A stretch of DNA of 64,000 nt, from assembly GCA_023251835.1 (NCBI GenBank), contig JAHEXZ010000018.1, positions 1,383 through 65,382 on the forward strand. The letters run 5' to 3'. The notes beneath the pieces are model-generated. The model did no database searches, was not told the DNA's origin, and worked only from the letters and a program-made list of their open reading frames with translations. Each line of letters begins with the position of its first letter. Positions within the stretch are counted from its first letter, which is position 1. The translations under genes and the position numbers were made by a program. Positions 9,834 to 40,065 of the stretch are shown here, piece by piece. The stretch comes from Bacteroidota bacterium. Its GTDB lineage: Bacteria > Bacteroidota > Bacteroidia > 2-12-FULL-35-15.

Positions 9834-11303
9834 TTGGTTCAATATGAAGGAGCAAATTACAAACTAAAAAATTACTTACCTTTGAAACTTATGAAAGAGA
9901 ATATTACCCGTTATCTGCCTTTTGCGACTATTGCAACTGTTGCAATAATGCTACTATCCCTGCATTTTGGATGGTTAAATATGTTTTCATTTGACTCCGA
10001 ATATGCAAATGTTCAGGGCATCGACTATTTTGCCGTGCCTAAATCATTTATAAATTTACTGGAAGGAAGGAGTATTTTCGATACCTGGGGAGGTACACCT
10101 TATGGCCCTCGTGCCACCTGGTACTTGGCACATCCGGCATTCAGCCTGTTTGTGGCTTCCTGGTTTTCATTTTTTCCGCCCTGGATAAGTTACTGGTTGT
10201 TTATTCTTTTTTCAGTTGCTATAATGGCTTATTGTGGACATATAATTTCAAAAACTACAACTTCTACCTTAAACAAACATCTTGCTTATTTTTTGATGCT
10301 ATGTGCTTTTCCGGTTTACTGGATGTTGTATGTAGGAAACATGCAGGCTCCATTGGTATTGGCACTTGCTTTAATAGTAGTTGCTGTGTATGAATTAACA
10401 TATTCAGAAAAGGAGTCGGATATGAAAGCAGCCAATCAAAAGCTATTGGCGGGATTACTTATTTCCTTCTTTAGCAAACCTATCGTATTACTCATGCTCC
10501 CTCTGCTACTTTTTACAAAAGAAACGCGCAGAATAACAATTATAAGTTTATTTATTTATGTTATTGTTTCATTCATTTTTATTATAGTTCCTGTACTAAA
10601 CCCCGAAGGTATTGGCTGGAATAAGCTGATGAGCATTGTGTTTGATTTTGATTTTATAAAAGAAAACATGAATATTTATAAAAATCAGTACAAACTAAAC
10701 GAGTATATGAAGGATAACAGTATCCATTGGTTAAACCTGATAGCACAATCGGAATATAAGTTTATGCACATTGATGTTTTTTCATTACCGGTTTTTATTG
10801 ACACTATCGTTGGGAAGAGCATATCTGCAGGAATATATAAAATACCAATATACATCAGTTTGTTTTTATCCGTGGGAGTTGCAGTAATAAAGGATGTAAA
10901 GATCCGCCTTGAAAGTACATTACTGCTGATTATGGCTATTTCGCTTTCTTTCTTTTTAAGTTATAATACTATATGGGAATACCAATTTACTTCTGTATTG
11001 CCCATTATTGCATTGATGCCGATGTTAAAAGAGAGGGGTGTTTTTTACAGAAAATATATATCACTAATGTGTTGGATAGGAGCACTTATTTACCTTCCCA
11101 GCTTTTATTTTTTAGTACGAGGTGGTGATTTTAGCGGCAATGCTTTAACAATAATCCGTCTTGATAGAATTATACCTGTTCTTTTATTGTTTTTAATAAT
11201 GATATTACAAGTAGGTATAGCTGTTAAAAAGCACGCTCATTTCAAGCAAATGAGCAGGTTTCGTATTCCTGAGAATTTTCCTGAAAAATTATTTTTTGAG
11301 TGA
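9834..11303 (+). CDS. multi-pass integral membrane protein, possible GT-C-fold glycosyltransferase
   Basis: 489 aa, >10 predicted TM helices, first loop FDSEYANVQGIDYF with acidic residues; first gene of the plus-strand membrane-protein block; start could be the internal MKEN at 9891. Confidence 0.45.
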   Translation: MVQYEGANYKLKNYLPLKLMKENITRYLPFATIATVAIMLLSLHFGWLNMFSFDSEYANVQGIDYFAVPKSFINLLEGRSIFDTWGGTPYGPRATWYLAHPAFSLFVASWFSFFPPWISYWLFILFSVAIMAYCGHIISKTTTSTLNKHLAYFLMLCAFPVYWMLYVGNMQAPLVLALALIVVAVYELTYSEKESDMKAANQKLLAGLLISFFSKPIVLLMLPLLLFTKETRRITIISLFIYVIVSFIFIIVPVLNPEGIGWNKLMSIVFDFDFIKENMNIYKNQYKLNEYMKDNSIHWLNLIAQSEYKFMHIDVFSLPVFIDTIVGKSISAGIYKIPIYISLFLSVGVAVIKDVKIRLESTLLLIMAISLSFFLSYNTIWEYQFTSVLPIIALMPMLKERGVFYRKYISLMCWIGALIYLPSFYFLVRGGDFSGNALTIIRLDRIIPVLLLFLIMILQVGIAVKKHAHFKQMSRFRIPENFPEKLFFE

Positions 11304-11311
11304 GCTTATAA

Positions 11312-12793
11312 ATGGTTATCAGCCGGCAACAGTTTAATAAAATTGAAACTTACCTGCTAAGTATTCTGCTGTATGGTATTGTGCTGGTGTATACATATCA
11401 ATATTTTCAATTTGCCGATAAATACGAACCATGGACTACAGATGAGCTTTTCTATTATATTGAAGCCAAAGCTATAGCAGCTCATAATATTTATCAAACA
11501 CCGGCAAGTTTGGATGGAAATACTTCTTACATAGGAGATTTTGGTTTTCACGCAGTTAGTTATGCGATAAAAGACGGGTGGTTAGCTAAACTGTTTTTTC
11601 ACACACAGGATCCTCCGCTATTATTGATCAACTTTATCACTTGTATCGGAGTATTGGTGCTTATTCTTTTGTTTAAGCAGTTTAGTTTTAATATCCGATT
11701 AAAAATAGCTCTGGTAGTAGCCACGCATTATATTTTGTACAGCTATACACTTTCTTATATGCAGGAAACCATTCAATATTTTTTTGCGGTACTTGCGTTG
11801 GAAGCCTTGTATTTATTATATCTTAGCCCTTTAAACAGAACAACCAAATATCTCGTTTATTTTCTTGTAGTTATTACAGTTGCTATTACTTTCCGTTATG
11901 GATGGTTTATGTGGGGGGCAGGCTTATTGCCTCTTTCTACCAACCTAAAGAGCTTTATTAAATGGTGTTTGGTAGCAATTGGACTATTGGTTTTTGGGGT
12001 GTTTGTAAGCCGTTATATTGTAGCTCCGTATCCCTATTATGATATGACTGGTGATAGTATTATTAACGCAGGGAATTTTTCATTGATAAATTCACTTACA
12101 ACGGCCTGGCAAAAATTCAGAAACAACTTACAATTATTCCTGATACCAGATCCAAAGCTTACCACCACGTGTATGCGTTACTTGTTGCTTATGCTATTAC
12201 TGATTAGTTCCTGGTATGCCATTTTTAAGCGGAATAAGTTTACAATAGCCTGTACTTTGGTTAGCTGGGCATATTTTGTTGCATGCTTAACTTTTTATGA
12301 AGTATATTGGTCTTATGATGAGCGTGCATTAGCCGTGCTTAACCCGATCTTAGGATTTTCATTGGTAGGAAATGCGAACTCCTTCATTTTTTATCCTGTA
12401 ATTATTTTGCAATTATGGCTTTTCCCGGATGTCGTTCGGGAGACGAAGGAGAGAAATATGGCTTCGATCCTGGTCAATGCAAATACACCGGAGCGGGTTG
12501 CAAGAAAAAACTCCTATTCAAAAATTAAAGATTTGGTCAATGACAATGAAAATACAGTAGTGGGAATTAGTATTGGGCTTGTGCGGCATGGTACCGAGGA
12601 TTACTTTATTAGTTTTCCATTAATAAATAATAAAGGGTATCCGATACACTACAGAATATACAGGAATGGCAGGGATTTGAGGAACGTTCACAAACTTCGC
12701 TATTTTTTGGATCCTTCTCCTGCCGCACTTCCTGCAAACAACCAACTCATCTATTCGGATTCATGGATGAATTTGTATAGATTTTTTAATTAA
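11312..12793 (+). CDS. GT-C-like (ArnT/PMT-like) membrane glycosyltransferase candidate with C-terminal soluble domain
   Basis: 493 aa; first extracytoplasmic loop TTDELFYYIEAKAIAAHNIY resembles the DE..Y..A motif of GT39/GT83 enzymes; ~10 TM then ~120 aa hydrophilic tail. Confidence 0.5.
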   Translation: MVISRQQFNKIETYLLSILLYGIVLVYTYQYFQFADKYEPWTTDELFYYIEAKAIAAHNIYQTPASLDGNTSYIGDFGFHAVSYAIKDGWLAKLFFHTQDPPLLLINFITCIGVLVLILLFKQFSFNIRLKIALVVATHYILYSYTLSYMQETIQYFFAVLALEALYLLYLSPLNRTTKYLVYFLVVITVAITFRYGWFMWGAGLLPLSTNLKSFIKWCLVAIGLLVFGVFVSRYIVAPYPYYDMTGDSIINAGNFSLINSLTTAWQKFRNNLQLFLIPDPKLTTTCMRYLLLMLLLISSWYAIFKRNKFTIACTLVSWAYFVACLTFYEVYWSYDERALAVLNPILGFSLVGNANSFIFYPVIILQLWLFPDVVRETKERNMASILVNANTPERVARKNSYSKIKDLVNDNENTVVGISIGLVRHGTEDYFISFPLINNKGYPIHYRIYRNGRDLRNVHKLRYFLDPSPAALPANNQLIYSDSWMNLYRFFN

Positions 12794-12800: not shown

Positions 12801-13247
12801 ATGAAAAACAAGGTGCTTTCAGTTACAGAATGTGTATTAACATTGGCCTTACTTGCTGTTATAGTATCGCAGCTATATGTGATGTTTAGTATTTATGAAG
12901 AGACGTTTGAAAGTCCAGTAAGATATTTTAAACAAAATTATGGGACAGATTATATAACCCAATATGGGAACCGCTATACCGAGATCAGAGAATGGCTTCC
13001 CCCGTCAACAATACTATCTTATATTGGAGAACCTAATGAGAGCTTTTCTATGGGCTGCTTTAATTATGTACTTACACAATATTATTTATCCCCCAATTTA
13101 ATCTATAGAAACAATAACGACTTTGATACTATCATTTACAATCTTTATAACTCGAAACGTGTTAGTGATGCCACTAATTTTCATTTAAATAATGGGTGGC
13201 ATATTGTTAAAGATTTTAATAACGGCTTAATTCTACTTGCCAAATGA
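12801..13247 (+). CDS. small N-terminally TM-anchored protein, cassette partner (family S4, copy A)
   Basis: 148 aa with one N-terminal TM. Its C-terminus NNGWHIVKDFNNGLILLAK is shared with the 18203 and 21704 proteins. It overlaps the downstream gene by 4 nt. Confidence 0.65.
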   Translation: MKNKVLSVTECVLTLALLAVIVSQLYVMFSIYEETFESPVRYFKQNYGTDYITQYGNRYTEIREWLPPSTILSYIGEPNESFSMGCFNYVLTQYYLSPNLIYRNNNDFDTIIYNLYNSKRVSDATNFHLNNGWHIVKDFNNGLILLAK

Positions 13248-14638
13248 TATTATTTTTTTTAATACTTGTTTCCTTCATTTTGGGATTCTCATTTTGTTTC
13301 GCACTGTTCAGGAACACAGCTTTTTATAATTTACGTATACTATTCAATCTTTCTATTCCAATAGGAATAGGTGTTTCATCTATTGTTTTTGTCTTATTAA
13401 GTATAATGGACTTCACGCCATTATTAATTTTATTCGTACAAATCATACTCATACTTTTTCTGTTCTATAACAATCTTAAATCTAAACCTTATTCTAATTA
13501 TACTATTATCAATGGGGGAATATCTAATCTAAAAAAACAGGTTCAGGAACCTATATTTTTGCTATTGATTATAATATACATATATGCCTGGATCACAAAT
13601 GCAGGGATATTCTTCTTTGATAGCGTCAAAGAACCCCATGGGTTATGGGATGCTTTTAATTACTGGAATCTGAAAGCAAAGATAATAAACCGCTCCCCCA
13701 ATAATTGGCCAGCACTATTTCATCAAATGGTTTCAGAAGATTTCCATCCGGATTATCCATTATTACAAACCGGATATATCGCATATTGCTGGACATTCCT
13801 GAAAAATGAAAGTGTTTGGGTGCCAATTACCATTTCCTTCATTTTCACTTTTTGTACAATAGGGCTATTATCAGCATCTGTTAGTTTTTTCACAAACAGA
13901 ATACGAGGCCTGATTGCAGGGTTAACGCTACTATGTACTCCGTTTTATATGACGATGGGCGACTCTCAGTATGCTGATATCACTGTTGGTTTTTTTTATC
14001 TTGCAACAGTAGTGCTGCTAACCTTGGCCCGTGATGAACCAATTATAAAACTACAATTGTTAATTGCAGCTGGCATTACAGCAAGTTTGTGTGGATGGAG
14101 TAAAAATGAAGGGCTATTATTTATTGCCTGTTTAATTATTTCACAACTAACGTTATTTCCTGTAAAGAATACCCGCGAATTAATGAATGAAATAAAATAT
14201 TTAATACTTGGGATACTTCCCGTACTGCTAATAATACTATACTACAAGATGAGAATTGCTCCCTCCAATGACATTCTGAAAGCTCAAGGTGAAAAAACGC
14301 TGACTAAACTTACTGACTGTTCCCGATATGCAACTATAGCCAAGTGGTATATCAGCACAATAGCTTCATTCGGGAAATGGATGGTTAACCCGTGGTGGTT
14401 CTTCCTTTTTGGGGTTTTATACAAGGGGATAAATATAAAGAAAATGTTTCCTGGCATGATTGCGAACTATACACTATTGGTATTGATGTTAGTTGGCTTT
14501 TTCTTTATTTATATTGTCACACCGTTAAATTTAGAATTTCATCTTTCTACCTCTTTGCACAGATTATTTTTTCAATTATTTCCAACATTTATATTTTTGT
14601 ATTTTCTTTCAATCGGAAATAGAACTTCAATAACTTAA
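13244..14638 (+). CDS. multi-pass membrane protein family M3 (copy A), putative lipid-linked-sugar glycosyltransferase/polymerase
   Basis: 464 aa. Conserved blocks DSVKEPHGLWDA, DYPLLQ, FIFTFCTIGLL, MGDSQYAD, WSKNEGLLFIACL and SLHRLFFQLFPTFIF are shared with 18757..20214 and 20226..21707. Confidence 0.7.
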   Translation: MILFFLILVSFILGFSFCFALFRNTAFYNLRILFNLSIPIGIGVSSIVFVLLSIMDFTPLLILFVQIILILFLFYNNLKSKPYSNYTIINGGISNLKKQVQEPIFLLLIIIYIYAWITNAGIFFFDSVKEPHGLWDAFNYWNLKAKIINRSPNNWPALFHQMVSEDFHPDYPLLQTGYIAYCWTFLKNESVWVPITISFIFTFCTIGLLSASVSFFTNRIRGLIAGLTLLCTPFYMTMGDSQYADITVGFFYLATVVLLTLARDEPIIKLQLLIAAGITASLCGWSKNEGLLFIACLIISQLTLFPVKNTRELMNEIKYLILGILPVLLIILYYKMRIAPSNDILKAQGEKTLTKLTDCSRYATIAKWYISTIASFGKWMVNPWWFFLFGVLYKGINIKKMFPGMIANYTLLVLMLVGFFFIYIVTPLNLEFHLSTSLHRLFFQLFPTFIFLYFLSIGNRTSIT

Positions 14639-14654: not shown

Positions 14655-16163
14655 ATGAATAAACTAAAAACTATTGTAAGCAGCAACTACTTTTTTGTGG
14701 CTATTGTCCTTTATTATAGTTTATTTTATGTTTTATTTGGAGAGCAATATCCTTTTAAAGCCGGGTTTAGTACTGACGGACGAGTATATGAAAGTATTGT
14801 CTTCAGTTTTTCACAAAGCTATTATTTTGATTCCTATTATATACACCGGATACTTCCCTCACTCATTATCCGCATCTCATTTAATTTATTTTCAATAGAC
14901 ATGACTGAGGCAAATATTCTTTTTGCATTTCAGATTTTAAATATTGTCAGTCTGGTTATATCAAGCTATTTCTTAAAAAAAATATTTCTTATTTTAAAGA
15001 TTTCTCTAAAAAGTCAATTGCTTTTTTTTATAATGTTCTTATTCAACTTTGGCGTTATTAAATATCAATTCTATTTCCCTTCAATGACAGATCAACTTGC
15101 TTTAATGCTGAGCACTCTTTTGCTATATTTTTATCTGAGAAACAATGTTGCAGGTTTGGTAATTTCAACAATTGCATTAGCATTCACCTGGCCAATGGCC
15201 TATTATCTTGGTCTGATATTAATTGCCCTTCCATTTGCGGTACTACCCTATTCACAAGCCAGCAAGCTGCAAAAGAAAGCTGTCTATAGTATCTCTGTTT
15301 TATACATTCTGATACTATCAACAATAATTGTATTTATTTTGAATCTGGATATTAAAGTAGCTTTTGTCGCAAAAATCGATCGTGGGTGGCTCGCTTTACC
15401 CTTAAGCATCGCAGGAATAGCAACTATCTACTTTTTTTTCGGAAAACTATTTCTTAATAAAGCACTATTTAATGTTTTATTATTTATAAAAAAAATTGAT
15501 TATAAACGATTAGCTATATCGGGCATAGTTTTTATTACTGTTTATTTAATTATCGGAGCCCTTCATCCCAAACCTACATTTTTATATTCTATTTCACAAA
15601 CCCTTATCGATCCTGTTCTTTATTCTTTTATTAAACCTCTCATTACGATAGTTGCTGATGTCAGTTATTTTGGTGTATTAATATGCCTCCTCATATTATT
15701 CTGGAACAGCTTTTGTAAAATTGCTTCGCAAATGGGGTGGGGTATTGTAATAGCCATGGGGCTGAATTTGTTTTTATTTGGGCTGGCACCCCAAAGCAGA
15801 CATTTAATAAATTTACTCCCCTGGTTAATAGTCATACTGGCAAAAGCATTGGACAAATATTCATTTCCAAATCATTTTTATATTATTGTTGGCATATTAA
15901 GTATCATCGCATCAAAAGTATGGTTACCATTAAATATTTATGATTACTATAAAACAATGGCTCCCACGGATGAAAATGGCAATATAGGCTTTCCTGACCA
16001 GATATTATGGATGAATATCGGGCCATGGATGGATACACAGATGTATTACGTACAAGGCATAGCGGCTTTAGTAATCATGGCAATATTTTTTCTTATGCTT
16101 TATAAAATAGAAATAAACAAATCAAATCGGATACGGTTAATGAGAAAATTTCATGTAAAATAG
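14655..16163 (+). CDS. multi-pass integral membrane protein (possible GT-C / polymerase-like)
   Basis: 502 aa, ~12 TM, first loop STDGRVYESIVFSF; unique family in window. Confidence 0.5.
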   Translation: MNKLKTIVSSNYFFVAIVLYYSLFYVLFGEQYPFKAGFSTDGRVYESIVFSFSQSYYFDSYYIHRILPSLIIRISFNLFSIDMTEANILFAFQILNIVSLVISSYFLKKIFLILKISLKSQLLFFIMFLFNFGVIKYQFYFPSMTDQLALMLSTLLLYFYLRNNVAGLVISTIALAFTWPMAYYLGLILIALPFAVLPYSQASKLQKKAVYSISVLYILILSTIIVFILNLDIKVAFVAKIDRGWLALPLSIAGIATIYFFFGKLFLNKALFNVLLFIKKIDYKRLAISGIVFITVYLIIGALHPKPTFLYSISQTLIDPVLYSFIKPLITIVADVSYFGVLICLLILFWNSFCKIASQMGWGIVIAMGLNLFLFGLAPQSRHLINLLPWLIVILAKALDKYSFPNHFYIIVGILSIIASKVWLPLNIYDYYKTMAPTDENGNIGFPDQILWMNIGPWMDTQMYYVQGIAALVIMAIFFLMLYKIEINKSNRIRLMRKFHVK

Positions 16164-16189: not shown

Positions 16190-16924
16190 CTATTTCGCCT
16201 TGACGTAATATTGCGCTCCCCAAGGGCACCATTTTAAATATTTTTCTATAGCACCCAAAAAAGAAAATGCCTTAGGGAAAAATAAAACATATTTTTTATT
16301 CACTAAACTATAACCAGCCTCACTACACATTTGCATAAACAAAGAAGGTTTAATCATTTTACATCCCACATCAAATTCACAGGTTTTAAACACTTTTCTT
16401 GTTAAAGGATTCTTAGGATTATGTTCAAAAACATACAAATATCCTTTTGAAGAAAGCAACATTCTCAATTGTTTTAAAGTTTTGATATGTAGTTCCTCGG
16501 GGATATGATGAAATACATTTGCAACAAATATTATATCAAACCTTTGGTTTAATGATGCCAGTTCCTGAACATCATGAAATGTTATAAATTGAATATTGGT
16601 AAACTGCTTATTTTTTTCTTTAGCTACAGTAATTGATTTCTCTGAGATATCTACAGAACAAATTGAACAATCCGGGAAATAGCAATTAATAAACCTCTCA
16701 CTTTTTCCAACACCACAACCAAAATTCATTATTTGTATATTTTTAGTTTTGATTGTTTGGTCAGCTACATAATCATCAAATACCGTTCTTATCTTATGTT
16801 CATCAAAATATGATGCTTCGTATCCGGATGCACTTATACTTTTTTGAAGCAACTCATTATAATCATCAGCAAAGTTATCGAACTCAACTTCATTCTTTTT
16901 TCTTTCATTAGTATTTACAGCCAT
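16190..16924 (-). CDS. class I SAM-dependent methyltransferase
   Basis: 244 aa; motif I MNFGCGVGKSE, methyltransf_11/12-like spacing. Confidence 0.7.
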   Translation of the reverse strand: MAVNTNERKKNEVEFDNFADDYNELLQKSISASGYEASYFDEHKIRTVFDDYVADQTIKTKNIQIMNFGCGVGKSERFINCYFPDCSICSVDISEKSITVAKEKNKQFTNIQFITFHDVQELASLNQRFDIIFVANVFHHIPEELHIKTLKQLRMLLSSKGYLYVFEHNPKNPLTRKVFKTCEFDVGCKMIKPSLFMQMCSEAGYSLVNKKYVLFFPKAFSFLGAIEKYLKWCPWGAQYYVKAK

Positions 16925-27806: not shown

Positions 27807-27835
27807 ATTATTTAATTCTGTTGATACTATTTTTT

Positions 27836-30934: not shown

Positions 30935-31335
30935 TTTACAAATATATCTTCTCTTATTATTGGTGTTTTACAATCATCCCAAGGCTTTGTAAGCATTGCT
31001 ACAGCTGTCAGAGGAGTAATTGCATAAACGGTATGACGCACTCCGATAGGAGTTCTGAGACAAGATCCCTTACTGACGTGGATTATCCTTTGTTTCATTT
31101 CAGGAGCATCAAGTGTAACAGCAATTCCGGAACCTTCCACAATTAAAAAATATTCGATAAACTCCGGATGGTAATGATTCCCCCGGGTTGTGCCAGGAGT
31201 AAAATAAAGCAGGTTAAACTCTTTAATAACATCCTGAGGCACCCAGGTAAATATCCCGCCACGGCCATCTTTAACAGTTTCTACATTGCAAGTAGGAAAG
31301 AATACTTCCATTCTTTCATCTGACAATTTACTCAT
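30931..31335 (-). CDS. cupin-fold sugar isomerase/epimerase (FdtA/WxcM-like)
   Basis: 134 aa; RGNHYH and GVRH histidine motifs of small cupins that sit in deoxy-aminosugar clusters; size fits 3,4-ketoisomerases. Confidence 0.5.
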   Translation of the reverse strand: MSKLSDERMEVFFPTCNVETVKDGRGGIFTWVPQDVIKEFNLLYFTPGTTRGNHYHPEFIEYFLIVEGSGIAVTLDAPEMKQRIIHVSKGSCLRTPIGVRHTVYAITPLTAVAMLTKPWDDCKTPIIREDIFVK

Positions 31336-32163: not shown

Positions 32164-33678
32164 TTATTTCAATTTAAAGACTTCCATAATCTTTTCACCA
32201 TTAACATCAATTTTATGTACAGGTGTGCCGATATTATAATCTTTAGGGTGCCATCTGAAATTGGTTATAAAGTAATTAGCAGATTTAATGTCAAAAGTAT
32301 ATTCTAACCGACCTCTTTCTTTAACAGGCATTATACTGAAATTTAACATGGGGGTTAAATCCATATCATTATGATCTGAAGTAATAAATATTTTCGGGGA
32401 CGAATCGTTCGTCAAAATGTATTCTAATCCTTGTTTGTAGGATAATCCCCAATAATCAAGATCGTATTTCTCCCGGATATTGCTTCCCGCCAACAGATTG
32501 AAATATACATTCTGATGCGGGTGGTTCCTAACCATAAAAAATACAGTGAAAATAATGGAAAGGAAAGTTAAAGTGAGGGTAGAATTAATTATAATAACCT
32601 TTTTAATTGTTTGAAGCAATTGAATAAAACCATACACAGCAATAAGTACGAAAAAAGGATACACAAAATAAACATGTCTCCATGAATCATATACTGTGGA
32701 ATGTAGTACAATAACTGCTATAATTGGAGAGGCAAATACGAATAAAAATAGCTGGACAGGGATAGTGCTTCTAAAATTTTTCAATGTGTTTTTCACTATG
32801 TAGGCTATTCCCATAACAAAAATAAATATATAATATAGGGGAGTGGTTATACAAATCCATACGGGCAGATAATGCCATGGAACATTTTGTATCGGAACAA
32901 AATTGCCCATATATAGTGTAGTGCCATTACCGGGGTATTTGCTCATCTGCTTAAGTGCTTCCATAAAATGATACCAAGGGGCTAACCAAAATACAGGCCA
33001 GAAAACAATAACAAACACCACCAGATAAATCAAGAACATAATAAGAGGAATTGTTCTTTTTTTTTTTTGAAAAAAATAAAAATAAATGGTTGCGATTGGT
33101 ATCAATATACCCATAACTCTTATATCTATTGTAAATCCACAGAATATTGAGTGAATAAGAGCGGATAAAACAGTTTGCCTCTCAACAAATAAAAACATGG
33201 TGTAGGTAGAAATAATGCAGAAACAAAGCATCATCAAATCCTTCGAATTATAAAAACCTTCAGCAAATATTCTGGGAGAAACAACCAGCATAACCACACA
33301 GAGTAAAGCTGCAAAATGATATTTAAAAATTTTCAACGCGAGAAAATAAAAAAACAGGGAAGCGATAAAGAATGTTAAAAAAGTAAGTAAATGACGTAAT
33401 AAATAAACGCTCCTTTCATCTGTTACATTGAACATCTTTTCTGCCCCATACAATAAAAGTTCAAACGCTGGTCCATGGTATTTCCCGTCATTTGCAAGCA
33501 AAGCCCGAGAGTTATGGTTCTTTATAAAATTATAGTTAGCCTCTCCAATAACATATCTCTGCACTTCTTCATCTGTCGATATTCCATAATCCGAATAAAT
33601 AAAACAGCCCGTCAGAAAAAAAGTTATAAAAAACACATAAGCAATTTTTTTAAATATGCTGTTGTTTGTATAAATCAT
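32164..33678 (-). CDS. GT-C (ArnT/PMT-like, GT39/83-type) membrane glycosyltransferase family GTC-1 (copy 1)
   Basis: 504 aa; first-loop motif SDYGISTDEEVQRY; 11-12 TM then C-terminal soluble domain; paralog of 38560..40065 (LLRHLLTFLTFFIA / MLRHGICFLTFFIA, YNSKDLMMLCFCIIS / YNSKDLSMLCFCIIS). Confidence 0.7.
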   Translation of the reverse strand: MIYTNNSIFKKIAYVFFITFFLTGCFIYSDYGISTDEEVQRYVIGEANYNFIKNHNSRALLANDGKYHGPAFELLLYGAEKMFNVTDERSVYLLRHLLTFLTFFIASLFFYFLALKIFKYHFAALLCVVMLVVSPRIFAEGFYNSKDLMMLCFCIISTYTMFLFVERQTVLSALIHSIFCGFTIDIRVMGILIPIATIYFYFFQKKKRTIPLIMFLIYLVVFVIVFWPVFWLAPWYHFMEALKQMSKYPGNGTTLYMGNFVPIQNVPWHYLPVWICITTPLYYIFIFVMGIAYIVKNTLKNFRSTIPVQLFLFVFASPIIAVIVLHSTVYDSWRHVYFVYPFFVLIAVYGFIQLLQTIKKVIIINSTLTLTFLSIIFTVFFMVRNHPHQNVYFNLLAGSNIREKYDLDYWGLSYKQGLEYILTNDSSPKIFITSDHNDMDLTPMLNFSIMPVKERGRLEYTFDIKSANYFITNFRWHPKDYNIGTPVHKIDVNGEKIMEVFKLK

Positions 33679-33685: not shown

Positions 33686-34786
33686 CTAATAATTATTTAA
33701 AACCTCTATGACTTTATTCACTTCCTCATCGGTAAGTTCTGCATACATAGGCAAACTCAAACAATGTTCTGCAAGGTATTCCGCATTGGGACAATCTCCT
33801 TTTTTGTAACCCAAATTCTGATATGCTTTTTGCAAATGGCAAGGCACAGGGTAATGCAAAGCCGGATATATGTTATTCTGATTTAAATAACTCATTAGCT
33901 CCTGCCGTTTTTCAGCGGTGATTACAAACAAGTGATAAATAGAATCTGCCCACTCAGGCTGTGCCTGCATTTTAATTTTAGGATTGACTATTTCATTTTG
34001 ATATTGTCTGGCAATATCTTTCCTGCGCTGGTTCCAGCCTTCAAGATATTTCAGCTTAATTTTAAGTGAGGCGCCTTCCAAACCACCCATACGGTAATTA
34101 TAACCAATTTCATCATGAAAATACCTTACCTGAGAGCCGTGATTCCTCAGGCTTTGCAGGTGTTTATAATATTCTTCGTTATTGGTTGTAACTCCTCCCG
34201 CCTCTCCACACGCCCCCAGGTTTTTCCCCGGATAAAAGCTAAAGCAGGCCATTTCGCCAAAACCTCCAACCATACCCCCTTTATATCTTGTTCCCTGGGC
34301 TTGTGCAGCATCTTCTATTAAATACAAACCATTCTTTTTAGCTATGGCTACAACTCCGTCAATATCAAAGGGCTGTCCGTAAAGATGAACTCCTATTATT
34401 GCTTTTGTTCTGGAAGTAATTTCCCGCTCTATTTTAGCAATATCTATCTGCCAGGTATCAGGAGTACAATCCACAAAAACAGGGGTTGCACGGGTGTATG
34501 AAACACCCCATGCCGTGGCAATAAATGTATTAGCAGGCAGTATCACCTCGTCTCCTGCTCCAATTTCTAAAGCCAGCATCGCTATATGAAGGGCGCTTGT
34601 GCCATTGTTTAAGCCTACCGCATATTTTGTTCCGCAAAACGCAGCAAAATCCTTCTCAAACATTTCCACAAAAGGCCCTCCTGAAAAAGCTGTATTTTCA
34701 TACACTTTTTCAAATGCTTCAAAAATCTCTTTCTTGACTTGTTGATGCTGCCCTTTTAAATCCAGACAGTTAATTTTTTCAGACAT
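33686..34786 (-). CDS. DegT-family aminotransferase, WbpE/WlbC-like (UDP-3-keto sugar aminotransferase)
   Basis: 366 aa; LNNGTSALHIAMLAL, DEVILPANTF, FYPGKNLGACGEAG lysine region. Confidence 0.8.
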   Translation of the reverse strand: MSEKINCLDLKGQHQQVKKEIFEAFEKVYENTAFSGGPFVEMFEKDFAAFCGTKYAVGLNNGTSALHIAMLALEIGAGDEVILPANTFIATAWGVSYTRATPVFVDCTPDTWQIDIAKIEREITSRTKAIIGVHLYGQPFDIDGVVAIAKKNGLYLIEDAAQAQGTRYKGGMVGGFGEMACFSFYPGKNLGACGEAGGVTTNNEEYYKHLQSLRNHGSQVRYFHDEIGYNYRMGGLEGASLKIKLKYLEGWNQRRKDIARQYQNEIVNPKIKMQAQPEWADSIYHLFVITAEKRQELMSYLNQNNIYPALHYPVPCHLQKAYQNLGYKKGDCPNAEYLAEHCLSLPMYAELTDEEVNKVIEVLNNY

Positions 34787-34794
34787 TTAATTTT

Positions 34795-35280
34795 TTATTT
34801 TTTTATCGCCCTCGCAGGGTTACCGGCAACAATTGAATTTGCAGGCACATCCTTTGTTACTACTGCCCCGGCACCTACCAATGAATTTTCACCAATAGTA
34901 ATCCCGCATAGTATGGTAGCATTGCTGCCAATAGATGATCCTTTTTTCACATACGTTTCTATCAGTTTCCAGTCTGCATCTGTTTGAACAGAGCCATCCG
35001 GATTAGTGGCTCTCGGGAACAAATCATTTGTGAACATTACACCGTGTCCAATAAAACAGTTATCCTCTATATGTACACCTTCACAAATAAACGTATGGCT
35101 GGAAATCTTACAATTTTTTCCAATTGATGCACCTTTTTGTATCTCAACGAAAGCCCCCACCTTTGAGTTATCGTCAATAGAACAACCATAAGCATTCACA
35201 AAGTTGAAAATTTTTACATTGTTTCCAATCTTTACATTGTTTAATGACTGTTTATCATTTGTTACAGTAATTACTTCCAT
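34795..35280 (-). CDS. left-handed beta-helix (hexapeptide) N-acetyltransferase, WbpD/WlbB-like
   Basis: 161 aa; hexapeptide repeats [31 protein letters not shown] ... [25 protein letters not shown]. Confidence 0.75.
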
Positions 35281-35288
35281 GATCAGAG

Positions 35289-36290
35289 CTACAATAGAAT
35301 TTCTTTTCCTTTTTGTTTAATTGATTGTTGTGCACCTTCCAGAATTTTAACAACCTCGAGTCCCAGGTTAAAATCGGATACTGGCTTTGTGTTTTTGGTA
35401 ACAGCGCAGATAAAGTCTGAAGCCATATACGACAGTGCCTCATTATTCTGTATTTTAGGAATATATATATCTCCCACACGATAATCAACTAGTATACGAT
35501 GTTTCTCTTCATCTGTTTTCACCATATAACCAGTATCGTATACTTTTAGTTTTTCCGTAGGTTCCATATCATTAAATACGATCATCTTTTTATCACCACC
35601 AACTAAAGTCATACGTATTTTCACCGGAGAAGCCCAAGAACAGTTAAAATGCGCAATCATACCGGATTCGAAGTTAACTGTCATGTATGCTATATTTTCT
35701 ATCCCATTATTGGTATGCGATATTCCTGTAGCATTTATACTGTATGGTTTTTCAGGAATCAAATGGGCGAGTATGGAAATATCGTGCGGGGCTAAATCCC
35801 ACAGCACATTTACATCCTGCTGAAAAAGGCCAAGATTGATACGTGTAGAATCAAAGTAGTTTACTTTTCCTATATCTCCATTACTTACAAGTTGCTTCAT
35901 CTTTTGAATAGCACCTGTATAAAGGAAAGTATGGTCTACCATTAATACTTTATTTTTAGCATTTGCTATTTCAATTAATTTTTCAGCTTCAGCACCCGAA
36001 GCGGTCATAGGTTTTTCAATTAACACATGCTTATTACTGACAAGTGCTTTATAGGCAAGCTCGTAATGTGAAAATACAGGTGTAGCAATAACAACGGCAC
36101 TAATAGTGGCATCATTAAAAATATCATCTGCATTGGTTGTGGTTTTTACAAATGAATAATTTTTTTTAATACTATTCAACCGTTCTGGTCTATAATCGGC
36201 CACAACTTCCACTTTACAGTTATCAAAAGCCGAAAAATTTCTCAGAAGATTAGGTCCCCAGTAACCAAAGCCAACTATGCCAATTTTCAT
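35289..36290 (-). CDS. Gfo/Idh/MocA-family NAD-dependent oxidoreductase, WbpB-like (UDP-sugar 3-dehydrogenase)
   Basis: 333 aa; [14 protein letters not shown] Rossmann start, family-typical EKP motif (LIEKPMT). Confidence 0.75.
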
Positions 36291-36553: not shown

Positions 36554-37273
36554 ATGCAAAGCTGGTCGATTATTATCTTTTGTTATAATGAAAAGGGGAA
36601 TGTGGCTCATGTGATACGTGATTGTGTATCCGTTATACGGGCTATTGGAAGCAAGGAAAGGGAAATCATAATTGTTGATGACGGAAGTACCGATGGTTCA
36701 GTTAATGAGATAGAGAATGAAATCATAAAATTTCCCGGGGAAGCTTTTAAGCTGATAAAACATTCTACGAACCTTGGTATAGGTATGGCACTGCGCAGTG
36801 GGTATCAAAATGCGGTATATGAGAATGTGTGTGCAGTTCCTGCCGATAGGCAATTTAATGTTACGGAGTTGCTCCCTTTTTCTGAAATTGAGCAGGAAAC
36901 TTTTGTTTGTTTCTATAGAAAAGAAAACCAAAGTTATTCCCTGCTGCGTAATATCCTTTCTTTATTTAACAAACAATTCAATAAGTTGCTGCTTGGAATA
37001 TCCTTTAAGGATATAAACTGGGTAAAGATATATAAATCTGCTTCTTTGAAAAAACTTGATTTAAAACTGGAAAGTTCACTTATTGAAACTGAGATATGTG
37101 CCAAACTTGTTGCCATTGGAAACAGATTTATGGAGATGCCGTCTATCTATTTACCCCGGAATAATGGAGTTAGTAAAGGTGCTTCCTGGAAAATCGTAAG
37201 AAAAGCGATAACAGAAATGCTTAAAGTATACTTTGCGGTCAGAGTATTTAAATCAAAAATTAAAAAACACTAA
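36554..37273 (+). CDS. second GT2 polyprenyl-phosphate sugar synthase (ArnC/DPM1-like)
   Basis: 239 aa; IIIFCYNEKGN, IIVDDGSTDGS, and an Asp in AVPADRQFN in place of the canonical DxD; divergent from the long minus operon. Confidence 0.7.
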   Translation: MQSWSIIIFCYNEKGNVAHVIRDCVSVIRAIGSKEREIIIVDDGSTDGSVNEIENEIIKFPGEAFKLIKHSTNLGIGMALRSGYQNAVYENVCAVPADRQFNVTELLPFSEIEQETFVCFYRKENQSYSLLRNILSLFNKQFNKLLLGISFKDINWVKIYKSASLKKLDLKLESSLIETEICAKLVAIGNRFMEMPSIYLPRNNGVSKGASWKIVRKAITEMLKVYFAVRVFKSKIKKH

Positions 37274-37276
37274 AAT

Positions 37277-38515
37277 TTATATTACTTCCCTGCCGGTTTT
37301 GACCTTAAAATAATTCAGAAAATAACTAAAGGTTAATGCATACAGAAACACCCACACAGGAAGAGCTGTAATAATCAGTCTGTCACCTTCACCAAAAGAA
37401 ACTGGACTTGTAAGAAAGATATAATAAGCCAGTATGTAGCAGAAAATAGTCAATATAAAGTAAGACATTTCTCTTTGCTTGTAAAGCAGAAACAATATGA
37501 CTATAAGTGGTAAAATAAAAATAAGATGCAGCCAATAATAAAACGTGTTAAGAATATCCATATAACGAACATATTGAGGATATATAAATTGCCTTGTTCC
37601 AAGTAGAAAACCTGGAAAAGCATTCATATTTGTTTTTAAATTCTGCAGGTAAATATCAATATACACAGACTTGTTTGCAATCAGGTATTCCCTCACTTCC
37701 GAGGTGGAAAAATTAATTGTTTTTTTTCTTGCTTCCTCCAGGCTGCTATTTTCAATTTGTATTACTCCCTGTGCAAGGATATAATTTCTATATGTTTCCG
37801 TACTAATGCTGGATATGGAAAAAGTATTGTATTTAATTTTCATTAATGTTATTTGGAATAGTAGGGGAATTATAACAAACACAAGTATTACAATACTTTT
37901 GGGAGTTTGAAAATATTTCTTCAGATAAAAAAAAGGTAATATAATAAAGAGCATCAATATAAGAGGAAGTATGAATACCGGCTTTAGAACAGTTAATAAT
38001 ACCAAGATAAACAAAGAGCCATGAAAAAATTTTAGCCCCGATGCATCTTTGAAATTATGTGTTATAAAATAAACAAGAACTGACATAAATAACAGTGCTG
38101 TAACTTCAGTAAGGCATTGCATGGTCAACCCAAAGTATGAAAAGTTAAGCGCCATCAGTAGCCCGGAAACATAACTTAGTGCCCTATTCCGGGTTACCCG
38201 TTTTACCGAAAAAAAAATCAGGTTGATAGAAATAAGCCAAAAGAGTAGTTGCATCATCCATAGGGCAGTAGCACCAAAAGATTTATAAACCAACAGAATA
38301 ATCAAAGGGTATAAGAAAGGACGTATATACGAATAGCCTGTTTCGGAAAATTTGTAAAACTCATCACTGGTATTCAGATATGTAATAGAATCTATTGTAG
38401 TGAATAGTATTCCTCCGTTAATATTAATATGAAGGCTGGAGAAAAAAACAAAATAGATAATAAGCAATAAATAATTGAGCAGATAAATATCAATGTATTT
38501 TTTAAAATGCCCCAT
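37277..38515 (-). CDS. multi-pass membrane protein family M2 (copy 2)
   Basis: 412 aa; paralog of 22218..23450 along the full length. Confidence 0.65.
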   Translation of the reverse strand: MGHFKKYIDIYLLNYLLLIIYFVFFSSLHININGGILFTTIDSITYLNTSDEFYKFSETGYSYIRPFLYPLIILLVYKSFGATALWMMQLLFWLISINLIFFSVKRVTRNRALSYVSGLLMALNFSYFGLTMQCLTEVTALLFMSVLVYFITHNFKDASGLKFFHGSLFILVLLTVLKPVFILPLILMLFIILPFFYLKKYFQTPKSIVILVFVIIPLLFQITLMKIKYNTFSISSISTETYRNYILAQGVIQIENSSLEEARKKTINFSTSEVREYLIANKSVYIDIYLQNLKTNMNAFPGFLLGTRQFIYPQYVRYMDILNTFYYWLHLIFILPLIVILFLLYKQREMSYFILTIFCYILAYYIFLTSPVSFGEGDRLIITALPVWVFLYALTFSYFLNYFKVKTGREVI

Positions 38516-38559
38516 AAATATTCAATTGCTGCTTTTATTCCTATAAGTTTAAAATTAAC

Positions 38560-40065
38560 TTATCGTAGTTTAAATGCTTCCATGATTTTTTCTCCCCTTA
38601 CTTGTATCTGAAATACCGAATTTGGAATATCGTAATCCTGGGGATGGTTCCTGAAATTTGTAATAAAATAGTTGCCCGAATTAATGTCTTTATCTTTTAC
38701 CAGACGCATCCTGTCTTCTGCCGGTATACAATAAAAATTCAGATAACCAGGCAGATTTGCAGCCGTTATGTGTATCTGGTCAGATTTATCATGCGCTAAT
38801 ATATATTCCAGTGCCTGTTTATAAGATAGTCCCCAATATTCCATTTCAAATCTTTGCCGGAGATTATTTCCGGCAAGAACGTTAAAATAGACATTCTGAA
38901 ATGGATGTATGCCAATCATTACTATTATGGTATATGCCATTGATAATACTGTTATTACAACAATAAGTTTTTTAATCATCATGTTTTTTATAATCTGAAA
39001 AACCTGACTAAAGCCATATACAGCAATAATTAGAAAAAAAGGATAAATAAAAAACACATGCCGCCATCCATCATAAAGAGAAGAATTTAAAACTATTATG
39101 GCAACAACGGGAGTAAAAAGCATAAATAAAACAGAATGGAGCATAAAGGTGCTTTTAAAACTTGCAAAAGAATTTTTTATAACAAAAAACAAACCTGTTA
39201 TAAATAGCACAGAGTATACCACAGGCGTTGTTATGCCAATCCATGCCGGTATATAATGCCAGGGCAAATCTGCTGCAGGGACACTTTGTCCAAAATATAA
39301 ATTTGTAGAGCCTTTCACCGGATAGTTGCTCATTTGTTTAAAGGCTTCAATAAAATTTTGTACCGGGTCGAGCCAAAGTACTGGCCAGAAAGCCATGATA
39401 AAAAACAGCGAGTAAGCAATAAACACCAACAACGGAATTATTTTTCTCTCTTTTTGTAAAAAGAAAAAATATACAGTTGCGATCGGCAATAAAATAGCCA
39501 TTATTCTTATATCAACTGCAAAACCACAAAGCAAAGCATGGATAAAAGCACTGAAGATGGTTTGTTTTTCAATAAATAAATACATAGTATATGCTGAAAT
39601 AATACAAAAGCACAGCATAGATAAGTCTTTTGAATTATAAAAGCTGTCAGCAAATATTCGCGGTGATAAAACAAGCATCAGGCAGCCTAATAAGGAAAGA
39701 GCATGCCTCTTAAAAATTTTTAAACATAAAAAATAAAAACACAGAACGGCTATAAAGAAGGTTAAAAAGCATATTCCATGACGCAGCATAAAAATATGCC
39801 GGGCATCTGTTAAATCAAAAAGTTTTTCAGCAGCAAATAAAACAATTTCATAAGAGGGGCCATAATATCTGTGAAAATTTGAAAGTAACTCGGCTGAGTT
39901 TCCTGTTCTTATATAATTATAATTTAAGGCTCCTATTTGTGTCCATTGCACCCCTTCATCCCAATAGATTCCATAATCTGTAAAAATAAAACAAGCAACA
40001 GTAAACAAACAAATGAAAAAAATGAGAGCAGCGCGCTTAAAAAAAAGTTCTTCTTTGTTAAACAT
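38560..40065 (-). CDS. GT-C (ArnT/PMT-like) membrane glycosyltransferase family GTC-1 (copy 2)
   Basis: 501 aa; TDYGIYWDEGVQW first-loop motif; paralog of 32164..33678 including C-terminal domain (EKIMEAFKLR / EKIMEVFKLK). Confidence 0.7.
   Translation of the reverse strand: MFNKEELFFKRAALIFFICLFTVACFIFTDYGIYWDEGVQWTQIGALNYNYIRTGNSAELLSNFHRYYGPSYEIVLFAAEKLFDLTDARHIFMLRHGICFLTFFIAVLCFYFLCLKIFKRHALSLLGCLMLVLSPRIFADSFYNSKDLSMLCFCIISAYTMYLFIEKQTIFSAFIHALLCGFAVDIRIMAILLPIATVYFFFLQKERKIIPLLVFIAYSLFFIMAFWPVLWLDPVQNFIEAFKQMSNYPVKGSTNLYFGQSVPAADLPWHYIPAWIGITTPVVYSVLFITGLFFVIKNSFASFKSTFMLHSVLFMLFTPVVAIIVLNSSLYDGWRHVFFIYPFFLIIAVYGFSQVFQIIKNMMIKKLIVVITVLSMAYTIIVMIGIHPFQNVYFNVLAGNNLRQRFEMEYWGLSYKQALEYILAHDKSDQIHITAANLPGYLNFYCIPAEDRMRLVKDKDINSGNYFITNFRNHPQDYDIPNSVFQIQVRGEKIMEAFKLR

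Follow-up and report, generated by a model that had tools for sequence, protein, structure and literature searches.

The window analysed here is a 64,000-nt stretch from an uncultured Bacteroidota bacterium of the class Bacteroidia (GCA_023251835.1, contig JAHEXZ010000018.1). Within it, a 30-kb locus extends from tatC (8962-9855, minus strand; Pfam TatC, E 5e-69) to a gene encoding a membrane-anchored TPR protein (40387-41337, minus strand; Pfam TPR families, one TM segment at residues 61-79), and these two conserved borders enclose 27 tightly packed genes with a largest intergenic gap of at most 322 bp. Ten of the 27 genes encode GT-C-type candidates, nine of them firm and one (11312) probable. 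The initial annotation had described a GT-C-rich island of about 30 kb, which was borne out by the ORF check (all of its ORF coordinates were correct), by blastp paralogy and by Pfam matches. It had also counted at least ten multi-pass proteins, which holds, and 13 in total, which does not, as we found 12 (the ten GT-C candidates, an acyltransferase-3 and an MFS fusion), the remaining three membrane proteins of the locus each being single-pass. Its description of the GT-C density as unusual is fair for a Gram-negative bacterium; the mycobacterial arabinogalactan region has about six GT-C genes over a similar span.

Three assemblies share one gene order (79.9 kb at NCBI, 41 kb at ENA, and Logan contigs), and misassembly of the contig was ruled out by the recurrence of this order in the genome of a relative and in two more assemblies made independently. 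Given that the source organism is uncultured and known solely via metagenome assemblies, a chimeric contig or an array of functionless duplicated pseudogenes had to be considered. Such an artefact or decay is extremely unlikely in view of the agreement of the three assemblies, the presence of the locus between the same flanking genes in another species, the intact, tightly packed ORFs conserved over their full length, and the retention of invariant motifs in the paralogs.

Six of the GT-C candidates reached Pfam cut-offs, one for GT87 and five for PMT_2 (13244, 18757, 20226, 32164 and 38560; 27-37 bits against a cut-off of 26.1), and a GT-C fold or domain was obtained for nine proteins. The paralogous membrane-protein families proposed earlier were recovered by blastp: M3 with three members (13244, 18757 and 20226; 55-58% identity), GTC-1 with two (32164 and 38560; 54%) and M2 with two (22218 and 37277; 48%), at E-values from 1e-133 to 0, so that the paralogy is not due to chance. 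The locus includes several undescribed GT-C sequence families. At its left end lies a GT87-type transferase of the PimE-like family (9834-11303, plus strand; 36.4 bits against a cut-off of 25) with 10-11 TM segments and an 81% identical ortholog. The gene itself was correctly called, but its TTG start was not upheld, since that ORF overlaps tatC; translation probably begins instead at the ATG at position 9891, which matches the 470-aa product of an independent gene call. The undescribed 14655 family is represented by one gene (14655-16163, plus strand). M2, also undescribed, has an accessory copy (22218-23450, minus strand) and a core copy (37277-38515, minus strand), and the Foldseek matches of its structure model have weak E-values (0.01-0.5) but probabilities near 1. 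GTC-1 likewise has an accessory copy (32164-33678, minus strand; PMT_2, 36.6 bits) and a core copy (38560-40065, minus strand; PMT_2, 34.9 bits). The TM segments of the former stop at about residue 379 of 504, leaving a soluble C-terminal domain of about 120 aa, a layout similar to that of ArnT.

The first-loop motifs quoted in the initial annotation were present, namely SDYGISTDEE and TDYGIYWDEG in GTC-1 and TTDELFYYIEAKA in 11312. An invariant acidic residue follows soon after TM1 in M2 (D41), in 14655 (D41), in 11312 (D44) and in GTC-1, where D30, D36 and E37 of loop 1 are all invariant. In M3, the acidic residues D126 and D136 are located after TM4, and the layout of copy 1 includes three extra N-terminal TM segments ahead of the PMT_2 domain. 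The acidic loops are predicted to be periplasmic from hydropathy and the positive-inside rule.

The three M3 genes (copy 1, 13244-14638, plus strand, 27.3 bits against 26.1 for PMT_2; copy 2, 18757-20214, plus strand, 36.7 bits; copy 3, 20226-21707, minus strand, 31.1 bits) are each accompanied by a gene for a small partner protein, and this obligate pairing of a single-pass small protein with a GT-C enzyme, seen three times in the locus, had been overlooked. The first partner (12801-13247, plus strand) has one N-terminal TM segment, overlaps 13244 by 4 bp and is translationally coupled to it; the second (18203-18760, plus strand) and the third (21704-22186, minus strand) share 4-bp overlaps with 18757 and with 20226-21707, respectively. 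The first shares 37-44% identity with the second and third, and in 10 of 10 loci a small partner lies directly upstream of an M3 gene. Copy 1 of M3 shares 56-57% identity with its two paralogs, and copy 2 has an ortholog of 67% identity in the relative. As M3 orthologs are closer between genomes (61-67%) than the paralogs are within one genome (55-58%), the paralogs are old, and their functions probably differ.

The tenth candidate (11312-12793, plus strand) constitutes an undescribed family of its own and had no match in Pfam, NCBIfam or PDB searches. Among 57 relatives, which are 16-31% identical, D44 never varies and the conservation of E45 reaches at least 90%. In hhalign, the family matched M2 over 292 columns (probability 48%, E 1.9e-4), pairing D44 with D41 and R338 with R378. 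We rate 11312 as a probable GT-C transferase because of the invariant first-loop DE motif in combination with the weak collinear profile matches.

Two short GT2 proteins of 230 aa (both Pfam GT2, lacking TM segments), which the initial annotation had likened to ArnC and DPM1, did resemble these enzymes, with DPMS, ArnC and GtrB as their nearest solved counterparts. For 31354-32055 (minus strand), the best solved relative was the dolichol-P-mannose synthase of P. furiosus (5mlz, E 4e-28, residues 4-210), followed by ArnC and GtrB, and the top NCBIfam matches were ArnC and PgfS. For 36554-37273 (plus strand), the best solved relatives were ArnC (9hwj, E 1e-5) and GtrB; it has a counterpart at the same place in the relative (71% identity), and in a distant genome its homolog adjoins an M2 homolog, the two forming an isolated pair there. 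The NCBIfam matches of both proteins lie far under the equivalog cut-offs, and a GT2 lacking TM segments could instead be an ordinary Leloir enzyme. By sequence comparison, polyprenyl-phosphate-sugar synthases are nonetheless the solved enzymes that both appear to resemble most. The relative has two extra GT2s with TM segments at the C-terminus, and these align over their whole length with PgfS and ArnC, which suggests that every GT2 found in these loci is of the lipid-sugar synthase type.

Each synthase is associated with a sugar-tailoring module. Module 1 comprises a DegT sugar aminotransferase (26086-27189, minus strand; Pfam DegT, E 1e-105; best NCBIfam matches LegC, PseC and Per-type, all under cut-offs), a GNAT N-acetyltransferase (27186-27806, minus strand; Acetyltransf_1), a protein with two NUDIX stretches related to GDP-mannose mannosyl hydrolase (27836-28795, minus strand), a TylC3/NovU-type sugar C-methyltransferase (28973-30223, minus strand; Methyltransf_13, _23 and _14, C-terminal domain E 7e-47), a short SDR that may be a sugar ketoreductase (30224-30934, minus strand; weak Epimerase and RmlD_sub_bind matches) and a cupin of the putative sugar isomerase/epimerase type (30931-31335, minus strand; Cupin_2, Cupin_1 and Polysacc_synt_C). 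The enzymes of the previously listed tailoring set were all found, and the labels Gmm and FdtA hold at the family level only (27836 scores 120.9 bits in the NCBIfam Gmm subfamily, whose cut-off is 146, and the cupin matches FdtA at E 0.007). Module 2 consists of a WbpE-like DegT aminotransferase (33686-34786, minus strand; Pfam DegT, E 5e-119; 81% identity in relatives), a WbpD-like hexapeptide N-acetyltransferase (34795-35280, minus strand; Hexapep; 86-89%) and a WbpB-like GFO/IDH/MocA sugar 3-dehydrogenase (35289-36290, minus strand; Pfam), whose best NCBIfam match, UDP-GlcNAc 3-dehydrogenase, reached 138 bits, under its cut-off. No 4,6-dehydratase or nucleotidyltransferase that could start module 1 was found within the 64-kb window, so the sugar identities proposed below are guesses. 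The GTC-1, GT2 and tailoring genes lie close together in a single minus-strand operon, spaced 0-211 bp apart. In comparison with the Arn pathway, the locus holds two units, each with a tailoring set, a lipid-sugar synthase and a GT-C, and this gene order lends support to the ArnC/ArnT-style logic suggested at the outset. Decorating enzymes are represented by an acyltransferase-3 membrane O-acyltransferase (16976-18067, minus strand; Acyl_transf_3, E 2e-26) and by a soluble SAM-dependent methyltransferase (16190-16924, minus strand; Methyltransf_31/12/25; ortholog at the same place, 70% identity), which may act on a glycan or a sugar.

Screening the ORFs of the 64-kb window down to a length of 100-110 aa, we detected no Wzx, Wzy, WaaL, Wzz or initiating transferase, and likewise no ABC-2 exporter, GT1/GT4 or chain-extending Leloir transferase. 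The claim that the island is devoid of Wzx, Wzy, WaaL and an initiating PGT accordingly stands for this window, and the profile searches on which the initial annotation had staked its interpretation assigned no membrane protein to Wzx, Wzy or WaaL and only 23538 to a transporter family; that interpretation is supported. Profile models often miss Wzy and WaaL proteins, and 11312 is assigned to no family or fold, so a conventional O-antigen or capsule cluster might hide Wzx, Wzy, WaaL or an initiating transferase as 11312, 14655 or M2, which we regard as very unlikely. The protein 23538 (23538-25874, minus strand; MFS_1 and Spermine_synth), a fusion of a 13-TM MFS domain with a spermidine-synthase-like domain, matches the corresponding NCBIfam family with 125 bits, over the cut-off of 40. 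It is the sole transporter-like protein in the locus, and its counterpart is absent from the locus of the relative. This fusion had been overlooked and was not among the proteins previously listed as GT-C.

In the metagenome-derived genomes of relatives, the locus is found at the same place on the chromosome; its arms are conserved and its centre varies. In the relative, tatC holds the same position (85% identity), and the flanking genes are 81-85% identical against 48-70% for locus genes. The order TPR, GTC-1, M2, (GT2), WbpB, WbpD, WbpE is kept in loci L002, L005 and L008, in which orthologs of the M2 core copy (59-65% identity) adjoin GTC-1, and orthologs of the GTC-1 core copy (64-65%) adjoin the TPR gene in these three loci and in L003. 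In five related loci the neighbour of the TPR gene is GTC-1 or M2, and the TPR protein is a possible acceptor-binding partner. Between genomes, copy numbers differ and the locus centre is replaced; together with the lower identity of the locus genes, this is how a surface-glycan locus behaves.

Taken as a whole, we consider it moderately likely that this is a surface-glycan locus in which sugars are transferred on the periplasmic face of the inner membrane, the established framework being that of lipid-linked donors used by GT-C enzymes (PMC11127046). Cytoplasmic enzymes would tailor two nucleotide sugars, with module 1 (26086-31335) yielding a C-methylated, aminated and N-acetylated deoxy-sugar and module 2 (33686-36290) a 2,3-diacetamido sugar via the WbpB/E/D route. 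The short GT2 of each module (31354 and 36554) would then move its sugar onto polyprenyl phosphate, and the lipid-linked monosaccharide would be flipped, a step for which the locus offers a single candidate, the MFS domain of 23538. The GT-Cs (two GTC-1, two M2, three M3 with their small partners, the 14655 family, GT87 and probably 11312) would add single sugars, one linkage per enzyme, to an acceptor made elsewhere, those lacking an in-locus donor using common polyprenyl-P-hexoses from elsewhere, and the acyltransferase-3 and the methyltransferase would decorate the product. Several observations count against this proposal: there are only two donor synthases for ten transferases, no GtrA, SMR or MATE flippase was found in the locus, the window has no enzyme to start module 1, and the NCBIfam scores of the GT2s and the Foldseek E-values of the M2 model are weak.

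The small number of in-locus donors, along with the lack of an initiating transferase or polymerase and the presence of an acyltransferase-3 and a methyltransferase, both typical decorating enzymes, would also fit an island that does not build the backbone. Its Gtr-like side-chain transferases would instead modify, after polymerisation, a polymer supplied from elsewhere by Wzx/Wzy or ABC systems and cause serotype conversion. Known three-component systems decorate polymers in this Gtr-like way (PMC11127046). Against this stand the number of GT-C genes, ten distinct ones of ancient divergence gathered at a single fixed site on the chromosome, the absence of GtrA, and a core set that is conserved across species, not phage- or island-borne. 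Known decoration systems have one to a few GT-C genes each, far below ten, and we hold this reading as a tentative possibility.

A further reading differs from our preferred one solely in the acceptor: protein O-glycosylation of the PMT/TMTC or Pgf kind, in which envelope or secreted proteins, such as T9SS cargo, would be glycosylated after being brought in by the small partners and the membrane-anchored TPR protein. PMT_2 covers ArnT-type lipid A transferases too, the lipid- or glycan-acting ArnT, ALG and Aft enzymes score as high as PMTs, and an MIR domain and a fused TPR are absent from all proteins of the window. LPS or capsule antigens are the more typical setting for such exotic amino-sugar modules, and an LptB gene nearby indicates that LPS is made. 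We therefore judge protein acceptors rather unlikely, and would place envelope proteins second, behind LPS core or another lipid-anchored glycan.

Under the preferred reading, transfer of lipid-linked sugars in the periplasm, this is a surface-glycan locus conserved in site and variable in content, and the periplasm is where this lineage probably assembles a variable surface glycan or decorates it heavily.

The locus at 9834-40065 comprises 27 ORFs of at least 134 aa and hardly any non-coding DNA, the largest internal gap measuring 263 bp, with a further 322 bp ahead of the TPR gene. It is bordered by tatC (Pfam E 5e-69) and by a gene for a membrane-anchored TPR protein, and its GC content (30-35%) lies a little under that of the flanks (35-40%). 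By hydropathy, 12 membrane proteins are multi-pass and three are single-pass. On the minus strand, the WbpB-D-E genes, GTC-1, a GT2 synthase, a first sugar-tailoring module, an MFS fusion, M2 and an M3 gene with its small partner form a single tight block running from 36290 to 20226, and the locus may be read as two units of tailoring enzymes, synthase and GT-C transferase following an Arn-like logic. The same gene order was found in independent assemblies of the same organism, and an assembly artefact is essentially excluded as the source of this arrangement. The flanks carry housekeeping genes, including LptB (383 bits), PorV2 (505 bits) and PssA (112.7 bits against a cut-off of 107) at 3078-6339 of the window; given LptB and PorV2, the organism therefore makes and exports LPS and has a type IX secretion system. 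A phosphatidylinositol-anchored PIM-like glycolipid, considered because of the nearby CDP-alcohol phosphatidyltransferase gene, was dropped, since that gene is PssA and is not a neighbour of the locus in the related genome GCA_049276555.1. On the other side of the locus (49683-53234, plus strand), the gene for a C39-peptidase ABC exporter precedes one for an HlyD-family protein; the two resemble a bacteriocin or peptide export pair and are unrelated to the glycan locus. The regions 42955-44151 (minus strand) and 46255-49414 (plus strand) each encode a 398-aa protein with no Pfam or NCBIfam match; the two proteins are unrelated to each other, which ruled them out as paralogs, and the one at 46255 is followed by a 643-aa AAA_11/AAA_12 superfamily-1 helicase.

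The concentration of paralogous GT-C-like transferases described in the initial annotation is real, and the interpretation attached to it is supported. All-against-all blastp upheld the proposed paralog groups M3 (genes 13244, 18757 and 20226; 55-58% identity), GTC-1 (32164 and 38560; 54%) and M2 (22218 and 37277; 48%). As to the membrane proteins being GT-C enzymes, nine were established as such by Pfam or fold evidence, and one, 11312, is only probable, by profile comparison. Pfam gathering scores were reached by six of them, namely 9834 with GT87 and the three M3 and two GTC-1 proteins with PMT_2 (27-37 bits against 26.1). Among the features of PMT/TMTC enzymes (GT39/GT105), these last five proteins carry PMT_2 just above the cut-off at 27-37 bits, and no MIR or fused TPR domain was detected in the PMT_2 proteins of the window; a TPR protein encoded by its own gene is conserved next to GTC-1 or M2. 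No sequence match was detected between the PMT_2 proteins and solved PMTs, nor between GTC-1 and solved ArnT. The match of 9834 to GT87 (36.4 bits against 25) covers just positions 3-142 of the 237 in the profile, and its ortholog was likewise flagged as GT87 in an independent annotation; the membership is a profile match, and the use of mannose is putative. With a TTG start, the 9834 ORF shares 22 bp with tatC. Since the length is 470-471 aa in an independent gene call and in the ortholog, translation probably begins with the ATG at 9891.

The genes 11312 and 14655 and both M2 copies produced no Pfam match even at E 5, at which only noise was returned, and none in NCBIfam, and comparison of M2, 14655, 11312, GTC-1 and M3 with all PDB chains, both as single sequences and as profiles, yielded nothing useful. 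A homolog search of 5.8 billion proteins recovered 67 relatives of M2, and homolog searches gave 55 for the 14655 family and 56 for the 11312 family, the superfamily of which reached 313 cluster representatives in a full-database profile search. All members of these three families are without name or Pfam domain and are hosted by uncultured Bacteroidota/Bacteroidia metagenome genomes; many of the matches apparently derive from the same assemblies, indicating that the families travel together. A profile search of GTDB genomes found M2 in only six species-level genomes. From the family alignments, high-confidence AlphaFold models were obtained for M2 (pLDDT 92.5, pTM 0.92) and 14655 (pLDDT 89.1, pTM 0.91), and Foldseek aligned the M2 model with ArnT, STT3 and AftB at a TM of ~0.5. 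Two characteristics of the GT-C_A superfamily were observed, namely a multi-pass fold superposable on ArnT, PMT, STT3 or ALG enzymes and an acidic residue conserved in the first loop outside the cytoplasm. Shortly after TM1, such a residue is invariant in M2 (D41, 36-sequence alignment), in the 14655 family (D41, 27 sequences), in the 11312 superfamily and in GTC-1 (D30, D36 and E37). The invariant D126 and D136 of M3 lie after TM4 because this group has three extra N-terminal TM segments. Hydropathy and the Lys/Arg-rich N-termini would place these acidic loops in the periplasm, and lipid-phosphate-linked sugars are the putative GT-C donors, the adjacency of the DPMS-/ArnC-like GT2 genes being circumstantial only.

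For 11312, the deepest alignment comprised 57 of the 313 cluster representatives, 16-31% identical to it, in which D44 was the sole invariant residue and E45 was at least 90% conserved, together forming the loop-1 DE motif; none of these 57 distant members matched a Pfam GT family, and one bears a C-terminal TPR fusion. When family profiles built from shallow alignments were compared by hhalign, all probabilities stayed below 5%, and weakly positive values emerged only with the deep 11312 alignment. Against the M2 profile this gave a probability of 48% (E 1.9e-4) over 292 collinear columns, with D44 placed on M2 D41 and R338 on M2 R378, each invariant in its own family, and against 14655 a probability of 28%, D44 again falling on D41. 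These correspondences suggest that 11312 is a probable GT-C enzyme. Tandem growth of its family was seen in one related MAG, in which three members are consecutive (WBM13_02510, WBM13_02515 and WBM13_02520; P0155, P0167 and P0165).

The blastp comparison also brought out a group that the initial annotation had left undescribed: each M3 gene is coupled to a small gene encoding a protein with one N-terminal TM segment. The three small paralogs (12801-13247 and 18203-18760 on the plus strand, 21704-22186 on the minus strand) are 33-44% identical, have no family match and share the conserved C-terminal motif LNNGWH(I/V)VKDFNNG, and each overlaps the start of its M3 gene by 4 bp. The partner was directly upstream of M3 in all ten loci seen in genomes and metagenomes, and was found in just four JGI metagenome contigs. 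For partner and M3 alike, orthologous pairs were closer than paralogs within a genome, which suggests specific, co-diverging pairs. The partner is thus likely an obligate accessory subunit of the M3 transferase, as judged from sequence, and the gene coupling and co-divergence would be consistent with a physical complex of the two. A comparable arrangement is that of GPI mannosyltransferase I, composed of PIG-M/Gpi14 and the single-pass subunit PIG-X/Pbn1, for which sequence similarity between PIG-X and the partner is not expected. The partner proved not to resemble the soluble domain at the C-terminus of 11312-family proteins (probability 0.3%).

The donors of these transferases would be supplied by two GT2 proteins, 31354 and 36554, both of ~235 aa and without TM segments. 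They had been proposed to be ArnC/DPM1-like, which was borne out at family level only, their best solved relatives being DPMS and ArnC/GtrB, respectively. The archaeal dolichol-phosphate-mannose synthase 5mlz aligned with 31354 at E 4e-28 over residues 4-210, corresponding to the whole catalytic domain, and was followed by ArnC and GtrB; for 36554, ArnC and GtrB were the closest (E 1e-5 to 1e-3). In the NCBIfam ranking, ArnC and PgfS were at the top for 31354, with PpgS and AglJ lower, and PgaC and a generic glycosyltransferase headed the list for 36554, with ArnC third, all far under the equivalog cut-offs. Both proteins accordingly resemble, at family level only, the GT2 polyprenyl-phosphate-sugar synthase type (GtrB, ArnC, DPMS), and are predicted members of the lipid-sugar synthase class that are orthologs of none of these enzymes.

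Each synthase is accompanied by a tailoring module. Module 2 (33686-36290) is a WbpB/D/E-type triad of a 3-dehydrogenase (35289), a hexapeptide acetyltransferase (34795) and a DegT aminotransferase (33686), and module 1 (26086-31335) encodes a DegT aminotransferase, a GNAT protein, a double NUDIX relative of GDP-mannose mannosyl hydrolase, a TylC3-type C-methyltransferase, a cupin and a short SDR. With neither a 4,6-dehydratase nor a nucleotidyltransferase in the window, the exact identities of the sugar products are tentative. In a Kiruna MAG (L002; CAINDA010000045.1, 14148-15842), the WbpB/D/E triad is succeeded by genes for an ArnA-like formyltransferase (E 1.5e-54) and for a polysaccharide deacetylase resembling WbmS (E 6e-59), which points to N-formylation of the module 2 sugar there and to a closer parallel with Arn.

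The conventional machinery of surface-polysaccharide assembly was sought with Pfam and NCBIfam throughout the 64-kb window, in ORFs no shorter than 100-110 aa. Consistent with the initial annotation, no Wzx, Wzy, WaaL, chain-length regulator or initiating transferase was found in this window; more precisely, Wzx/MOP flippases, EpsG, Wzz, Bac_transf/WecA-type initiating transferases, ABC-2 exporters and GT1/GT4 proteins were all missing, and no Wzx/Wzy- or ABC-dependent O-antigen or capsule cluster was recognised in it. The possibility that a membrane protein of the locus is a hidden Wzy within a conventional cluster is essentially excluded; the M2 model, for its part, gave a TM of 0.14 and a probability of 0.02 against WaaL in Foldseek. 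No dedicated small flippase (GtrA, SMR or MATE) was matched by Pfam either, and no gap exceeds 322 bp, leaving no room for a hidden GtrA or ArnE/F gene. The sole transporter-like domain of the locus is the 13-TM MFS part of a 778-aa protein (23538-25874, minus strand) encoded inside the glycan operon and assigned by NCBIfam to 'fused MFS/spermidine synthase'. This fusion is missing from the locus of GCA_049276555.1; it could act as the lipid-sugar flippase of the system or as a glycan-modifying enzyme. No relevant literature on fused MFS/spermidine-synthase proteins came up in a search, and a second one, on GT-C oligosaccharyltransferases in Bacteroidota, gave no candidate paper by title or abstract.

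Comparison across genomes revealed conserved arms around a variable centre. In GCA_049276555.1, the locus lies between the same tatC and TPR genes, with a left arm (GT87, 11312-like, partner-M3, 14655-like, methyltransferase and a second partner-M3) and a right arm (WbpE/D/B, GT2, M2, GTC-1 and TPR) that are conserved, whereas the centre differs and the copy numbers are two for 14655-like, two for M3 and one each for GTC-1 and M2. Identity to the window amounts to 81-85% in the flanks and 48-70% in the genes of the locus. The two additional GT2 proteins of this relative are again of the synthase type: they carry TM segments at the C-terminus and can be aligned with PgfS and ArnC over their full length. 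Its variable centre (L008 16565-19535; L010 14774-15925) also holds a FemAB-like protein, two family-less soluble proteins and a 383-aa family-less multi-pass protein that may be a further GT-C-like protein, all of which are absent from the window. The order TPR, GTC-1, M2 recurs in L002, L005 and L008, with variants in L003 and L004. In the MAG GWF2_29_10 (MEOD01000047.1, L007 9995-12150), the gene for an M2 homolog (36% identical) stands alone with that for a TM-less GT2 of 238 aa beside uvrA and other housekeeping genes, and the two look like a minimal pairing of GT-C and synthase.

Three further known systems invite comparison. In the three-component principle (PMC11127046), polyprenyl phosphate receives a single sugar from a GT2 synthase, and a GT-C enzyme then passes this sugar on at the extracytoplasmic side. 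Both enzyme types of such systems (GtrA/GtrB/Gtr*; Citrobacter ORF15/14/12, GT136; CsbB/GtcA/YfhO) occur in the locus, the acceptor-specific transferase being represented by nine confirmed and one probable GT-C protein. However, the locus is without GtrA, SMR or MATE flippase, has ten GT-C proteins to two synthases where the known systems have a ratio of 1:1, shows no backbone pathway in or beside it, and encodes synthases that, unlike GtrB and ArnC, have no TM segments at the C-terminus. Against the Arn system (ArnB, ArnA, ArnC, ArnD, ArnE/F, ArnT), the ArnC model scored 49.9 and 35.4 bits with a cut-off of 529 and the ArnB model 218-230 bits with a cut-off of 631, and ArnT, ArnA, ArnD and ArnE/F had no matches. 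The locus differs from Arn in lacking the ArnA decarboxylase and ArnE/F and in its predicted sugars, one made by WbpB/E/D and the other a C-methylated amino sugar. The ArnC/ArnT- or mycobacterial-style scheme put forward earlier is thus matched in logic and not in orthology to Arn: the locus works like Arn and is not an Arn operon. It fits both the three-component concept (PMC11127046) and Arn in logic, and departs from them in flippase and orthology.

In its ratio of GT-C enzymes to donors, the locus is closest to mycobacterial cell-envelope assembly. Lipoglycan and arabinogalactan synthesis (PimE/GT87, Emb, Aft; polyprenyl-P-mannose and -arabinose) likewise combines many GT-C enzymes with few lipid-monophosphate donors into a stepwise glycan outside the cytoplasm; the two have in common a GT87 member and a DPMS-like synthase, and AftB, AftA, AftD and PimE are among the structural matches of the GT-C proteins of the locus. 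The host, by contrast, is a Gram-negative Bacteroidia with LPS export and T9SS, the locus is without phosphatidylinositol mannoside, DprE or PRPP genes, its enzymes are small (410-504 aa) and devoid of the large domains with which Emb and AftD bind carbohydrates, and the M2, 14655 and 11312 families are unrelated in sequence to mycobacterial GT-C enzymes.

Taken together, the locus is best supported as a multi-module extracytoplasmic glycosylation system. The two GT2 synthases would charge polyprenyl phosphate with sugars from the tailored nucleotide sugars, and the products would be flipped; the GT-C set, each member with its own linkage specificity, would transfer the sugars singly onto an acceptor made elsewhere, with O-acylation and methylation coming last. 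Candidate acceptors are LPS, another lipoglycan or a protein, and the role may be the building of a whole glycan or its decoration. We consider it rather doubtful, if conceivable, that this uncultured Gram-negative Bacteroidia lineage assembles a whole surface glycan, variable between strains, step by step in the periplasm, with polyprenyl-monophosphate sugars as building blocks in the manner of mycobacteria instead of a Wzx/Wzy or ABC route, using at least three GT-C families new to databases and one GT-C type in need of a dedicated single-pass subunit.

The principle of pairing a lipid-linked monosaccharide with a GT-C enzyme is known; to our knowledge, in Gram-negatives it has been seen as a one- or few-gene add-on to a conventional pathway. 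What is new here is not the mechanism itself but three undescribed GT-C families (M2, 14655 and 11312), with no relative in Pfam, in NCBIfam or among solved structures, together with a GT-C accessory protein not described before, all in an uncultured lineage. The two compact tailoring/synthase/transferase modules have potential use in glycoengineering with unusual amino sugars. In this organism, all of the glycosyl-transfer machinery of a conserved locus seems to consist of the lipid-linked donor and GT-C pairing, so that mycobacterium-like assembly of glycans in the periplasm becomes conceivable for a diderm.
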